Positions 8,757 through 18,597 of a stretch of 64,000 nt of DNA are shown piece by piece. Below the pieces are notes generated by a model. The model was not told the DNA's origin, made no database searches, and was given only the letters and a program-made list of their open reading frames with translations. The position numbers and the translations under genes were made by a program. Source of the stretch: Parachlamydiales bacterium (GTDB lineage: Bacteria; Chlamydiota; Chlamydiia; Chlamydiales; JAJFMK01); contig CAVXVG010000002.1 in NCBI GenBank assembly GCA_963765145.1, positions 64,001 to 128,000 of the forward strand, read 5' to 3'. Within the stretch, counting starts at the first letter, position 1, and the number at the start of each line of letters is the position of its first letter.

Positions 8757-9361
8757 AAGGAGTGGGCGCTATTCCTTCAAACGCCCATCTTGAAGACCTT
8801 TCCGATCTGTGTTAATGGCAAACTGAAACGGCCATCAACCTGGGCATTTTCGGCGAGCCCTAAAAATCCACCATCTCGCGCTAGCGTTTGGAGTGCTAAA
8901 CGGCCTTGTTGCATAATTAATTGCCTCGAGATCCTCAATTTCCTGCAGCCCTACAGGCTGCCATCTTTATTTTCTACCCTTAACCTGGGGCGTTGCCCAC
9001 AGGCTGTTGCAACTATCCGGCTTTCAGCCGGAAAATCTCGATACATATTTTCATCGGCCTGAAAGGCCAAAACTGCAACAGCCCGCGGGCAACGCCCCGG
9101 GTCCAGGATGAAAATTTATTTGGCAGCCTGAAGGGCTGCAGGAGGGACGAAGAATCACGTGCAATTATGCAACAAGGCCGTGCTAAACTCCTGTTTAGCT
9201 TTCACTTTCACTGATAAGTCAAAGCTAAACAGGAGTTTAGCACTCCAAACGCTAGCGCGTAGGTTAGAAATTCAGAGCAGGCAGCCCGTTAAAAAAATCC
9301 AATCAAAGAGAAAAAGAGAATCTTACAGCCGAAGGTAGAAATTATATTGGGCGCCCACTCC
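8757..9361. mobile_element. Nested palindromic composite: I-like ends > family A (8877-9259) > IS903-like MITE B (8902-9179) > REP-like C (8941-9143)
   Basis: GGAGTGGGCGC ends at 8759 and 9351; B has GGCCTTGTTGCATAATT TIRs flanked by direct GTGCTAAAC at 8893-8901 and 9180-9188. Confidence 0.82.
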
Positions 9362-9365
9362 GATC

Positions 9366-9398
9366 AAAAAAAAAGCCCCGCCAGTTACCTGGCGGGGC
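9366..9398 (-). terminator. Rho-independent terminator of the nucleotide translocase gene
   Basis: gccccgccag-ttac-ctggcggggc with A9 on the plus strand (U-tract on the minus strand). Confidence 0.88.
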
Positions 9399-9420
9399 GT
9401 CTTGTTGAGCTAGCTAATAA

Positions 9421-10965
9421 TTAGCTGGCTGCTGTTTCGGCTTTGCCGATTGGCATTGCTTTGTCTTTTGGTTTCTCGGTGAGGGCAGTAAACTGCTTGT
9501 TCAACGAGCGAACTGACACGATCCAACCGCCGATGATGACGAAGAGGATACCAGCAACGTAAGGTGTGATCGCTCCGATAGAACCGAAAGCAACCAGCAA
9601 CCCTTGCTGAATAAGAGCTCCGCCTGATTTACCAAAACGGGCACCGACAACGTCAATCGCCGCTTTCCCTTTAACTTTTGACTCTGGGTCAAGAGGGATG
9701 TAGGCCATTTCTTTTGTTGGGTCAAACAGCGAGTACTTGGTCGATTTACTCATAATGTTTTGAGCCATACCGAAGATAACCGCTAAGAACAGAGGTGTTG
9801 TACCAATTGTAGCAATGAAACCAGCTAAGTTGTCTCTGAAAATGACGAACGAGAAGAACCCGACGCCTGTTACGAGAAGAACAACAGGAGTGATCATCGC
9901 AGAAGTACCCCAGCCGAAACGACGGATGATAGAACTTGCAATAATCATCATGACGATCGATACATAGCCTGTCATCTGAGAGAACCAGCCCATGAACGCA
10001 CTGTATTCGTTTGCGTTAGGATATTGGAGCTTCAACTGATTTTTCCAGGTTACTTCGACTAAGTTGATCGAAATACCATAGCCGATAACCAACATGGTCA
10101 AGCAAAGGATGTACTTTGATTTTGCCAAGAACGCCAAGCTTTCGCCGATTGACATTTTGAGCTTTTCTTTCTTCGGTTTTTTGATCTCTTCTGGATTGTA
10201 GTAACGTGGGTCGGTTAAAACGTACTTGTTAATCCAATAGTAGATGGCCATCACAGAAACACCTGCAAAAGCGACTAAGCTCATCAAGTAATTCAGTGTC
10301 ATACCCCAAGCATCGACATCGGCAGGTAAGAATTTACGGATGTCAGAGAAGTAAACGATCAAGAAGCCGGATATTGGAAGAGCAAGGTTTGCTGCTAAGC
10401 CGAACTGGCTGTAAAATCTTTTCGCTTCAGAAACTTTAGTGATGTCATTGGCAAATCCCCAGAAAAGGAGAGAAAGAGCCACAGAGCCCCACATTTCTGC
10501 CATGATGTAGAACAAAGAGTATGTCCAGTTCCGGTAGCAGGCAACCAGCCCGCTCAACCCTTCAGGCAAGAACGACTGCATTAAGTCGGCACTTGTCGTT
10601 GGGTGAAGAAGCTCTCTGTTAGGATAAATAACTGTCGCAAACAATCCGAAAAAGATGATGAAAGGTGCAATTGTTGCGTAAAACAGACGAGGCTTGCTCA
10701 GAATGTTACTCATTTTTGAGTACAAGAGCATGAATAGAATCGCAAAAGGAACAACGCCCCAAACCTTTAGGAAGGGAATCGCCTCAGCGCCAGATCCTTC
10801 AGCGGTCACGATCAAGGTATCTTTAGTGTCGCGAAGGATTGTGTAGTTAAATGAAATGAGAAACATCAGCAAGTACATTGGCAAAAGCTTCTTAAGCTCG
10901 AAGCCATGGACCGGCCAAAAAATCGAACGGAGCTTACCAAACTCCGGCTTTGTCTGTTCTGACAT
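9421..10965 (-). CDS. ntt1: ATP/ADP translocase (NTT/TLC family, Npt1-like)
   Basis: ELKKLLPM, FNYTILRDTKD, AEMWGSVALSLLFWGFAN, KYSLFDPTKEMAYIPLD, KGKAAIDVVGARFGKSGG. Confidence 0.95.
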   Translation of the reverse strand: MSEQTKPEFGKLRSIFWPVHGFELKKLLPMYLLMFLISFNYTILRDTKDTLIVTAEGSGAEAIPFLKVWGVVPFAILFMLLYSKMSNILSKPRLFYATIAPFIIFFGLFATVIYPNRELLHPTTSADLMQSFLPEGLSGLVACYRNWTYSLFYIMAEMWGSVALSLLFWGFANDITKVSEAKRFYSQFGLAANLALPISGFLIVYFSDIRKFLPADVDAWGMTLNYLMSLVAFAGVSVMAIYYWINKYVLTDPRYYNPEEIKKPKKEKLKMSIGESLAFLAKSKYILCLTMLVIGYGISINLVEVTWKNQLKLQYPNANEYSAFMGWFSQMTGYVSIVMMIIASSIIRRFGWGTSAMITPVVLLVTGVGFFSFVIFRDNLAGFIATIGTTPLFLAVIFGMAQNIMSKSTKYSLFDPTKEMAYIPLDPESKVKGKAAIDVVGARFGKSGGALIQQGLLVAFGSIGAITPYVAGILFVIIGGWIVSVRSLNKQFTALTEKPKDKAMPIGKAETAAS

Positions 10966-11008
10966 AGGGTTCCTTGTTTAAAACAAATTTTTTAATGTTT
11001 ACACTTTG

Positions 11009-11037
11009 AGTATACACTATTTTTGTAAAATCTTCAA
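11009..11037 (-). promoter_or_regulatory. Probable ntt promoter
   Basis: TTGAAG-17 nt-TATACT on the minus strand. Confidence 0.6.
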
Positions 11038-16630: not shown

Positions 16631-17164
16631 CGTTTGGAGCAAGGAAGAGACTGCCGTCCCTAAGATCAAGAAGTAAGTTTTCATACTCTCTGTGATCTCT
16701 GTGTCCTCTGTGGTTGAAATATATTTAAATTTTTCAACCACAGAGGACACAGAGATCACAGAGGTTTTTTTTTAGGCTCAAAGCATCGGATTTAAAGACA
16801 CTTACTCAGGAGTGCTAAACTCCTGAGACACTTGCAAAAATCAGAATGAACTCTGATAAAGCTCTTAACATCTCTTAAGAGCTCTTGGTTACAAGATAAA
16901 AATAACAGGATGAACAGGGTGAACAGGATAAGCTTCGCCAACAAAATGATTTCTATTTGCAAAATGATAAAGCTAGGCGGAGCTTATCCTGTTCACCCTG
17001 TTCATCCTGTTTAATTTATAGGAAGCTTTTCCTTAGGTTAATGCAAAACATAAAGGTCTACTGTGATCTGTAGTCCGAATTTTGCAAGTGTCTCTCCTGT
17101 TTAGCTTTGACTCGTCAGTGAAAGTGAAAGCTAAACAGGAGTTTAGCACTCCAAACGCGTTGCG
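16623..17164. mobile_element. Nested composite: family A carrying an F-containing insert (F 16688-16763) and MITE H (16825-17094), which contains E (16904-17011)
   Basis: H has GAGACACTTGCAAAA/TTTTGCAAGTGTCTC TIRs flanked by direct TCCT (16821-16824, 17095-17098); removing it restores the A core aaactcctgtttagc. Confidence 0.82.
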
Positions 17165-17223
17165 AGGTAAGACTTACTTGAAAAAGATTCCTCACTTTGA
17201 AACTATCTAAAGGGAGGTTTACG

Positions 17224-17781
17224 ATGATCAAAGTGATTTTTATTCCGGGGAATGGGGGTGGAGGGCCAAATGACAACTGGTTTCCTTATCTAAAAGAGGA
17301 GCTGGAAAAAGAGAACGTAGAAGTAGTAGCCGTCCAATTTCCCGACAGTATTCTGGCTCGAGAATCGTATTGGGTCCCCTTTTTAGAAATGTTGAAGGCA
17401 GATCATGAAACAATTTTGATTGGGCATTCGTCAGGTGCGATTGCTGCGATGCGCTACGCAGAAAACCATACGATTTTAGGCTCTGTTCTTGTTGGTACTT
17501 ACTACACCGATATGGGGCTTGAGATGGAAAAGAAAAGTGAGTATTTCGGACGTCCTTGGCAGTGGGATAAGATCCGGGAACATCAACAATGGATCATCCA
17601 ATTTGCCTCTCAGAACGACCCTTGGATCCCTATCGAAGAAGCTAGATTTGTCCGCGATAGGCTACAAACCGAATACCATGAATCGATCGATCAAGGCCAT
17701 TTTGGCGGCGACCATTACAAGCCCACCTTTCCTGAACTCCTCGCCGCTCTTAAAGCAAAACTCAGGAATTATCCCGATTGA
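17224..17781 (+). CDS. RBBP9/YdeN-family alpha/beta hydrolase
   Basis: IFIPGNGG, NWFPYL, GHSSG nucleophile elbow, NDPWIP, GHF; GGAGG RBS before ATG 17224. Confidence 0.88.
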   Translation: MIKVIFIPGNGGGGPNDNWFPYLKEELEKENVEVVAVQFPDSILARESYWVPFLEMLKADHETILIGHSSGAIAAMRYAENHTILGSVLVGTYYTDMGLEMEKKSEYFGRPWQWDKIREHQQWIIQFASQNDPWIPIEEARFVRDRLQTEYHESIDQGHFGGDHYKPTFPELLAALKAKLRNYPD

Positions 17782-18064
17782 ACATCAGTTCATAATAGGC
17801 CCTTGTAACTGCCACAGGAACACCTCTTCTTTGAAGAAGAGAAGCATCATGATGGGCCTCCGCTGAAGACAACTGATCTACGATAAGGCAGTGATAACGC
17901 ATCATTGCGACCGTTTGCCACTGGGCTTGCGTGAATTGGTCCTGCGCTGCGACTGCTAATGCTTCGACCAGTCTTGTAACGACAACACACCGCTCGTTTC
18001 TATCAGGAGCTGAAAAATGAGGAAAAAGAGCTTTTGGCGTAAAAATTAACTGTATAGAAGACAT
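17762..18064 (-). CDS. Hypothetical protein
   Basis: 100-aa ORF with ATG start filling the gap; no recognisable motif. Confidence 0.45.
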   Translation of the reverse strand: MSSIQLIFTPKALFPHFSAPDRNERCVVVTRLVEALAVAAQDQFTQAQWQTVAMMRYHCLIVDQLSSAEAHHDASLLQRRGVPVAVTRAYYELMFNRDNS

Positions 18065-18132
18065 AAAACATCAAATACTTTCAACAATTTTAAACTAAAA
18101 ACCCATTGAAAATCAATAGGTTACAGAGGCTT

Positions 18133-18597
18133 CGCGAAGCGTTTGAAGTGCTCTACGCCCGTTTAGCCTTTCACTTTCACTGATAAGTCAAAGCTAAACA
18201 GGAGTTTAGCACGGCCTTGTTGCATAATTCTCCCTTATAAAAAAAGAAGAATAACAGGATGAACAGGATCGCCTTCGGCGGCAGGATAAGCTTCGCCTAA
18301 TGTTGGATCTTTTTCAACGAAACCATTCCTTCATTTGTTTCAACGATGAAAACGATATGACGATAAAAACGATGGAACCTTTACATCTGAAATACCGAAA
18401 CTTTTTATCGTCATATCGTTTTCATCGTTGATGGTGTGTATACGGAGATTATTTTAGTTGGCGAAGCTTATCCTGCCGCCGAAGGCGATCCTGTTCATCC
18501 TGTTATTTTTTTCTTTTGAACCTGTAATTGTCCTGCACGAGAGTTAGTGTGGTGACAATTATGCAACAAGGCCGTTTAGCACTCCAAACGCTTTCGC
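18133..18597. mobile_element. Four-layer nested composite: A > B (18213-18573) > E (18250-18507) > J (18340-18431)
   Basis: B TIRs flanked by direct GTTTAGCAC (18204-18212, 18574-18582); each inner layer is a separate inverted-repeat pair. Confidence 0.85.

Follow-up and report, generated by a model that had tools for sequence, protein, structure and literature searches.

The stretch of DNA analyzed here (the window) is 64,000 nucleotides long, lies at G000:C2:64001-128000 in the assembly of a Parachlamydiales bacterium, and contains short palindromic elements that sit inside one another, with a doublet termed A as the host of several others. Here, G000 denotes the assembly with the window, C# its contigs, G### genomes, and L### loci elsewhere, e.g., in metagenomes. 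Assembly G000 comprises 2.68 Mb in 37 contigs, is 84.8% complete, and has a GC content of about 44%, and DNA related to it was found in peat and soil metagenomes. The gene at 9421-10965 of the window encodes a nucleoside triphosphate/nucleoside diphosphate (NTP/NDP) exchange transporter, which is consistent with a chlamydia-like organism. A preliminary description of the window had listed five nested composites, and we found all five at the coordinates given there. Their layers are listed below in window coordinates, with the strand where one was assigned; B[C] stands for B carrying C, REP for repetitive extragenic palindromic sequence, IS for insertion sequence, and MITE for miniature inverted-repeat transposable element.

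8757..9361: I-type outer mosaic of I ends with P, Q, S, and R modules; no parent transposase found
8853..8869, forward strand: P-type end inside I; elsewhere it brackets A, K/H, or merely an 11-nt spacer
8877..9259: A, the REP doublet host, split by B
8902..9179: B[C], a MITE of 278 bp with IS903-like ends and an exact 9-bp duplication; three further copies are 98.9-99.6% identical
8941..9143: C doublet, tail-to-tail, with palindromes as at the Y1 gene C21:219036 (74-78% identical)
16623..17164: A host with M[F] and H[E]; the entire composite is missing from contigs of 4/4 related runs
16640..16808, forward strand: M shell with asymmetric ends and a 4-bp duplication of A; overlooked in the preliminary description
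16688..16763: F, short tandem units as an inverted pair, cargo of M
16825..17094: H[E], a MITE that shares its ends with the IS1182-like element C27:207333 and has a 4-bp duplication
16899..17019: E, inverted repeat of tandem units, of the type also found upstream of the GxxExxY gene C5:106981
18133..18597: A host split by B[E[J]]
18213..18573: B[E[J]], a MITE whose 9-bp duplication is exact; C2:11332 (93%) and C27:12414 hold related copies
18240..18517: E arms of 58 nt, 95% complementary
18340..18430: J, inverted tandem-unit repeat in the spacer of E
28816..29039: outer arms of A around B[D], A centre lost
28841..29015: B[D], a MITE
28875..28960: D, a palindrome tagged GTAG, with hairpins at its termini; no partner gene was found
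36360..36852: A host, centre lost, carrying M[F] at 36376-36551 and B[C] at 36564-36828
46226..46565: decayed nest comprising I ends, an H-like end, half a K, and the right ends of a B and an A

As had been proposed, removal of the inner layers restores the outer A. Without B and one 9-bp repeat, the A at 8877 becomes a 96-bp A that is 98% like free A; the 16623 composite without M and H leaves a 95-bp A, also 98% like free A; and the 18133 composite without B and one 9-bp repeat leaves a 95-bp A that is 96% like free A. The A copies at 28816 and 36360 have lost their centre, and simple removal restores no intact A there. F had been placed directly in A and in fact sits in the additional shell M (16640-16808 and 36376-36551), which is flanked by a 4-bp duplication. 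I had been read as an outer palindrome layer; its ends are present, but I is a mosaic of several ends. Across the genome, the deepest nests have five layers, e.g., A>B>K>H>E at C29:40428.

In agreement with the preliminary description, which had seen no transposase in the window, 11 transposase and partner-protein queries gave no match there, with matches elsewhere in the assembly. The partners it had predicted (IS903, IS1182, and Y1/RAYT types, the last being REP-associated tyrosine transposases) are present elsewhere in the assembly, as are IS110 elements, which it had not predicted. An Rfam scan of the window returned 0 matches at the gathering score.

By its sequence, A is a REP doublet. 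It has the layout of a REPIN (REP doublet forming a hairpin), with a pair of short palindromes, inverted relative to each other, that spans less than about 130 bp and is present in many intergenic copies. The 95-bp A occurs in G000 in 149 paired copies, 89 of them free at 88-101 bp, with compensatory variants in the inner stems. It is enriched between convergent genes (53/289 gaps versus 74/1076 gaps). Its tag is GGAG, not GTAG or CGTC as in REPIN/RAYT systems; D and K carry GTAG. The A 12-mer is found 277 times in G000 and 10 times in G001, a genome of the same genus, and at least 60 A motifs are found in 5 of 401 genomes of the order, i.e., in 4 of 400 besides G000. Under a crude model of the open reading frames (ORFs), ∼22% of the non-ORF DNA of G000 consists of short multicopy repeats. 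The repeat density of G000 is unusual even within its order; the Chlamydiaceae, used as a yardstick in the preliminary description, are misplaced as such for a genome of this size and GC content with relatives in peat and soil. We also considered A as a DDE-type MITE and dropped this candidate because long A pairs enclose only IS110, IS903-like, or ordinary genes, and no autonomous A was found.

A-type repeats occur in records of Verrucomicrobia, Acidobacteriota, and Parachlamydiales (at least 125 loci, several of which are chance matches). A-type doublets enclose a Y1 gene in L234 and G228; in L238, L271, and G389 they are adjacent to one. The proteins of the L238 and G228 genes exceed the RAYT cut-off (NF047646). 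In G000, Y1 genes are flanked by the palindromes C (C21:219036), K (C5:119344 and C28:46907), and L (C24:56771); from partial sequences, the enzymes of C and L score as IS200-like, and that of K scores best as RAYT, under the cut-off. A, C, K, and L would have been spread by the Y1/RAYT enzymes whose genes they flank. Other palindromes also accompany genes: the GxxExxY gene has an E doublet upstream, and a four-helix-bundle gene (C26:202667) has G repeats on either side. G repeats of that type are found in the window at 589-623, 2121-2216, 52845-52866, and 58205-58324; they are in no shell in G000, yet are B cargo in L301 and L309. Each unit of the tandem gene duplications at G000 C24:30385-32121 and C18:80800-81800 contains one A, so A multiplies passively too. 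The Y1 gene at G000 C29:104647, with a long C-terminal extension and three direct repeats before it, differs from the other Y1 loci. In a Verrucomicrobia record (L181, L193, L222, L274, L283, and L288), short tandem-unit repeats resembling E, F, and J come after A-type repeats, and nesting of REP and tandem repeats may extend beyond this lineage.

B is inserted at one site in A. Three IS copies of 1114-1115 bp carry the 16-bp B ends, and all of them lie in A, with an exact 9-bp duplication at C29:69607. The transposase found with these ends scored 296 bits against NF033579 (cut-off, 140) and exceeded the cut-off of PF13737, which places it in the IS5/IS903 type. Members of the IS903 group have terminal inverted repeats, are about 1.1 kb long, and generate 9-bp target duplications. 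B and H fit the definition of a MITE, with the ends of an autonomous IS, a target duplication, no transposase, and a length under about 500 bp. Among 53 paired B, which include the three full IS copies, 50 touch A, compared to 4.9% expected from the share of A in non-ORF DNA, with a crude A mask and ORF model (binomial p 5e-62). Nesting thus exceeds what intergenic space alone predicts, in line with the preliminary description. The 9-bp flanks of the 53 B form a direct duplication (≤1 mismatch) in 27 cases and an inverted one in 8, match in neither way in 16, and fall at contig ends in 2. Four B elements have a rare variant of the A site duplicated on both flanks, a pattern not expected from a fixed composite or a mis-join.

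The 9-mer by itself is insufficient as a target, since 428 look-alike 9-mers outside A are almost unused by B (rough denominators). The IS903-like enzyme may therefore read more than the 9-mer, namely, the flanks or the hairpin of A. Its closest homolog among the 400 genomes scored is in G228, which belongs to another family and has 238 A motifs; the two enzymes are 72% identical, and 6/6 ends found for the G228 homolog and its MITEs are at the A site used in G000. Genomes G162, G354, and G397 have 0 to 1 A motif and homologs that are 65, 61, and 47% identical to the G000 enzyme, respectively; their 15 IS copies lie at 15 unrelated sites, 12 of them with an exact 9-bp duplication. (Five G108 copies were dropped from this target control, as 5/5 had no inverted-repeat pair.) The use of the A site in G000 and G228 and of scattered sites in the other three indicates, from these comparisons, that A targeting is a property of one sub-lineage of the enzyme; with an autonomous element it is seen in two genomes, which amounts to two observations and no statistic. 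B ends, searched as an exact 15-mer, are absent from G163, G298, and G346 and have a single match outside A in G389, so not every A-rich genome has these guests. As a control, six ISAs1, ISNCY-like, and IS200 copies in G000 were examined, and none lies beside A. In L301, in L309, and at G000 C9:10202, the entire B is a near-perfect palindrome with linkers alike on both sides, which suggests that one arm was copied onto the other.

Other guests of A also use fixed sites. Two IS110 elements, termed IS110a and IS110b, are inserted at the same dinucleotide of the A arm in 5/5 and 1/1 copies, respectively. Their DEDD transposases scored 239 and 214 bits against NF033542 (cut-off, 140) and are about 26% identical to each other. 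Both elements have inverted repeats a few bases inside both ends and a downstream non-coding region (371 and 343 nt), features by which we assign them to the IS1111 group. Both downstream regions carry the same core-anchored 8-mer, which shuffled sequences contained in 0.6% and 1.8% of cases. Each also has a second match, shorter and to the other strand, and the two matches are ordered as reported for IS1111 seekRNAs. In IS110a both predicted matches lie in an internal loop of the predicted fold. We infer that the IS110s could locate A via a guide RNA from this region. Around the IS110 copies of G001 and G298, no A was seen in the flanks read.

H shares its ends with a 1459-bp IS1182-like element, which is itself in K inside B inside A. 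Its 29 positions comprise 23 in K, 4 in A, and 2 elsewhere (a preference for palindromic targets, with 27/29 in K or A), and 20/29 have a direct 4-bp duplication. H ends (exact 15-mer) are absent from G228, G163, G389, and G298, and the one G272 match is in coding-like sequence. For M, 17 left ends follow an A end, and 14 of these are followed by a right end and then the same 4 bp. The earlier suggestion that any palindrome serves as a landing site thus finds no support in this form, since B, M, and both IS110s are each found at one fixed position in A, and H mostly at one in K. At G000 C21:174189 an IS110a end and at C9:3857 an H end adjoin a C element; C may be loaded into further shells besides B.

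No empty B shell was found in G000. The cargo of the 53 B was a transposase in 3, C in 23, K in 14 (6 with H), D in 4, F in 3, A in 2, and E with J in 1; the remaining 3 hold, by eye, only an end hairpin of D. (Probe counts for E, G, J, and K are crude and were used for cargo lists only.) Conversely, of 73 outer C ends, 54 lie no more than 45 nt from a B end. Loaded shells come in groups of near-identical copies located in different A hosts and on either arm: B[C] forms two such groups, one of 6 and one of 4 copies, with 98.9-99.6% identity, and B[K] forms one of 5 copies with about 97% identity. Thus, the I>A>B>C nest at 8757 needs one insertion of B[C], not one of B plus one of C. The preliminary description was right that non-autonomous elements of different transposase classes enter existing palindromes; its equation of four layers with four insertions was not borne out, as cargo (B>C, B>K, and H>E) likely travels with its shell. 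B[G] and B[D] on other metagenome contigs indicate that loading occurred repeatedly. Identical stretches, multi-kb or nest bearing, are found on two contigs each (C19:6525-10538 = C25:2351-6365; C25:32610-32870 = C28:1-260); these may be duplications or assembly redundancy, and one B[C] may be counted twice among the ends.

The cargo also bears on the opposite possibility, that each layer, including C, K, D, E, F, and J, was inserted separately, with RAYT-like enzymes targeting the centres of shell hairpins. We consider this unlikely. Linkers between B ends and cargo vary widely, as would result if, like TnpA-REP of Escherichia coli, the enzyme cuts at variable distance from the REP (PMC3333891); REP dimers within longer palindromes have been reported (PMC3733652); and B holds A in 2 cases, the opposite of the usual order. 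A nearly empty P exists, and G228 has plain cargo-free B MITEs; together with the variable linkers, these fit REP integration into shells. However, separate insertion does not readily explain loaded shells in groups of 4-6 copies that are 97-99.6% identical, or that 0/50 non-autonomous B in G000 are empty. Moreover, in G001 a B located in A, with a 9-bp near-duplication, brackets an entire Y1 gene and C-type palindromes, and a 351-bp sister with the same linkers lacks the gene, which fits capture followed by gene loss. Serial insertion may still be the origin of a loaded family, though not of each locus; capture and integration are both retained below as routes by which cargo could be gained.

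Related genomes and metagenomes contain filled and empty versions of the same sites. A scan for the A|B junction returned 25 metagenome loci, and 16 were compared with G000. L300, L312, and L321 hold B in an A that is empty in G000, the empty sites that the preliminary description had called for; L307 and L315 have other B cargo in the same A; and L305 (versus E) and L324 (versus K) have a different repeat family at the same gap. The remaining loci had no usable ortholog or no repeat. In G001, 7 of 16 window gaps could be placed, and none held the same nest; an I-type mosaic without A, B, or C occupies the gap corresponding to 8757..9361. The free copies named in the preliminary description are present, except that the supposedly free C at 39294 is a C that, by eye, retains a B-like linker on one side. 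These copies and a further free A at 30746, with what relatives hold at their gaps, are as follows.

4168..4308: free I; E-like repeat at this gap in G001
30746..30841: free A; L312 has B[K] in the same A
32482..32622: free D pair; no D pair at this gap in G001
37829..37928: free A
39294..39494: C without B ends
44892..44987: free A; different palindrome at this gap in G001
47985..48131: free E
56240..56334: free A; predicted to fold, as DNA, into a single hairpin (z -13.5)

We further compared contigs of four related DNA sequencing runs, which share at most 0.32 of words, giving no weight to uncovered parts; no RNA run was among the matching runs listed. Contigs of 4/4 runs join 16611 to 17177, skipping the entire nest, and among the contigs listed none spans 8757-9361; the composites of this strain rest on the assembly. 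Contigs of 4/4 runs also skip a 44-bp stretch at 11722-11767, and those of 3/4 skip 12460-12691. Within the latter, 12492-12641 is an F-type inverted repeat with 68-nt arms adjoining an M-like right end, and copies related to this repeat are M cargo elsewhere.

Such exchange at the same gaps raises the possibility that any hairpin or tolerated intergenic gap attracts insertions and that nesting reflects crowding with no target recognition. In addition to the gaps occupied by other repeat families in L305, L324, and G001, the enrichment of A between convergent genes and the abundance of short repeats in non-ORF DNA are compatible with crowding, and IS1272, of the IS1182 family, picks stem-loops by structure (PMC5678879), which may hold for H. 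Nevertheless, we regard crowding as improbable because the insertions of B, M, and both IS110s in A fall at single base positions despite plentiful C, D, E, G, and K hairpins, the identical position is used in another family (G228), and other ISs of G000 avoid A. Mis-assembly of near-identical short repeats in a metagenome-assembled genome is scarcely credible as the source of the composites: short-read bins can mis-join repeats of 280-600 bp, 24/53 B are without a direct duplication (2 more are at contig ends), and no related-run contig among those listed spans the 8757 nest, but rare host variants are duplicated on either side of B, single-contig G001 contains A>B and A>H, and A>B recurs in G228 and the 25 metagenome loci.

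Fixed sites, target duplications, and full-length ISs with the same ends at the same sites are directly seen, as are loaded shells that recur almost unchanged in different copies of A and orthologous loci at which A is filled in some cases and empty in others. The explanation that we consider probable is that A hosts fixed-site guests (B, the IS110s, and M), that H enters K and A, and that loaded shells likely move as units. In this model, the REP doublet A would be a hub: IS903-like ends (B), the two IS1111-type IS110s, and the orphan shell M would enter fixed positions in it, and the IS1182-like H would enter the REP doublets K and A. Judging from the shared ends and sites and the filled and empty alleles, the short B, H, and M shells, which hold other palindromes, would likely carry them as one unit, mobilised in trans by transposases encoded elsewhere in the genome. 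Shells would have gained cargo a few times each and then multiplied, either by capture of a REP-flanked locus with loss of the gene or by REP integration into the shell. The lost A centres could result from adjacent deletion or from recombination between B insertions. A multicopy intergenic repeat as the target would keep ISs out of genes.

It is important to note that several observations weigh against this explanation. Only one of the three IS903-like copies is intact over the gene, and two appear frameshifted. The 16 B without a direct or inverted 9-bp match and the 8 with inverted flanks indicate that many B were rearranged or mis-joined. The H transposase falls below the IS1182 cut-off (best score, 120 bits against NF033551, versus 270) and is therefore termed only IS1182-like. 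No parent of M, P, or I was found by end motifs around ORFs in G000 and G001, with IS630 and other families not profile-searched. The predicted guide regions of the IS110s fold no better than shuffles (z -0.96 and -0.52). An A-type RAYT was not found in G000 (84.8% complete) with the G001 homolog as the sole query (best match, 26%), and the RAYT homologs of G001 and G163 are without A in the flanks read. Last, the nearly empty P and the cargo-free B MITEs of G228 fit cargo gain by REP integration into shells.

We put forward more tentatively, as possible rather than probable, a two-way guild on one REP: an IS903-type enzyme would have become fixed on it across chlamydial families, two unrelated, RNA-guided IS1111s would have been programmed independently to the same dinucleotide, and shells would carry REP doublets and whole RAYT-like loci. 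If so, otherwise immobile REP systems would gain a route to spread, in that REP doublets and RAYT-like genes, thought to be immobile as a unit, could be carried by IS ends. The system offers a natural experiment in the acquisition of a fixed target by a DDE transposase: one site is hit by the enzymes of G000 and G228, and homologs that are 47-65% identical use scattered sites in A-poor genomes while keeping the same ends and the 9-bp duplication, so swaps could map the determinant of specificity. The IS110s may likewise provide two natural guide-RNA programmes, as predicted, aimed at one target. As a caution, bacterial repeats have undergone fewer insertion events than the depth of their nesting suggests.

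Two further observations concern other repeated or mobile sequences in G000. Segments of RHS-type proteins are repeated at C7:5100-14700 and C26:192340-196400. The ISAs1 transposase at C20:26-1237 is 96-98% identical to several G001 loci, compared to about 75-80% for genes generally (DNA), and this difference points to recent horizontal transfer.

Several known systems resemble this one, as described in the accessible portions of the sources cited here. REP-targeting ISs are established (IS1397, ISKpn1, ISPsy8, IS621, ISPa11, ISPpu9/10, and ISRm19/22; Tobes and Pareja 2006, PMC1525189). As in those, each copy here lies at one REP position, and the REP is restored on removal. The strict REP-targeting ISs belong to IS3, IS110, and IS4; IS5 (ISNm1106) is loosely associated, and IS903 is unmentioned in the accessible text of that source. 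In contrast to them, IS903-like and IS1182-like elements, two IS110s, and an orphan share one REP here, mostly as MITEs. REPINs have been discussed both as IS targets and as distinct from MITEs (Bertels and Rainey, 10.1101/2021.07.10.451892). Like REPIN/RAYT and BIME/REPtron systems (BIME, bacterial interspersed mosaic element; 10.1101/2021.07.10.451892, PMC3333891, PMC3733652), the palindromes here are tagged inverted pairs that are intergenic, enriched between convergent genes, and flank a Y1 gene, and both head-to-head and tail-to-tail forms occur (PMC3733652, PMC3333891). Unlike REPIN/RAYT systems, the A tag is of the GGAG type, a string absent from the accessible text of PMC3733652, and at least four REP-type families coexist in G000. 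REPtrons are said not to move as a unit (Ton-Hoang et al., PMC3333891), whereas in G001 a Y1 gene and its palindromes lie within an IS903-type shell with a 9-bp duplication.

The IS110s resemble IS1111/IS110 seekRNA recombinases (PMC11187229) in their sub-terminal repeats, long downstream non-coding region, and 2-bp core, and the top-strand match precedes the bottom-strand match as in IS1111 seekRNAs (PMC11187229), with the guide predicted here from sequence; bridge RNA recombinases of the IS110 type have also been described (PMC11208160). Unlike other IS1111/IS110 elements, two enzymes that are ∼26% identical aim at the same dinucleotide from opposite orientations. The palindrome preference of H has a parallel in some IS1182 members (PMC5678879). 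Like mobile insertion cassettes and passenger-carrying MITEs, the shells are IS ends around non-transposase DNA that would be moved in trans; unlike in passenger MITEs, the passenger here is nearly always another mobile palindrome. In their accessible text, the reviews PMC3184786 and PMC10969869 do not contain "nested," and the latter, on prokaryotic MITEs, does not contain "cargo" either. Our literature search, which included few subscription papers and did not cover ISfinder, found no convergence of several ISs and cargo-loaded MITEs on one REP and no REP-specific IS903-type element. The small dispersed repeat (SDR) elements of Nostoc and the arrays of neisserial intergenic mosaic elements (NIMEs) in Neisseria place several short repeat families within or beside each other and may narrow the novelty. 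The parts are thus of known types; what is new is that several guests converge on one arm of a REP, that a DDE enzyme targets it in a lineage-specific manner, and that the shells are loaded.

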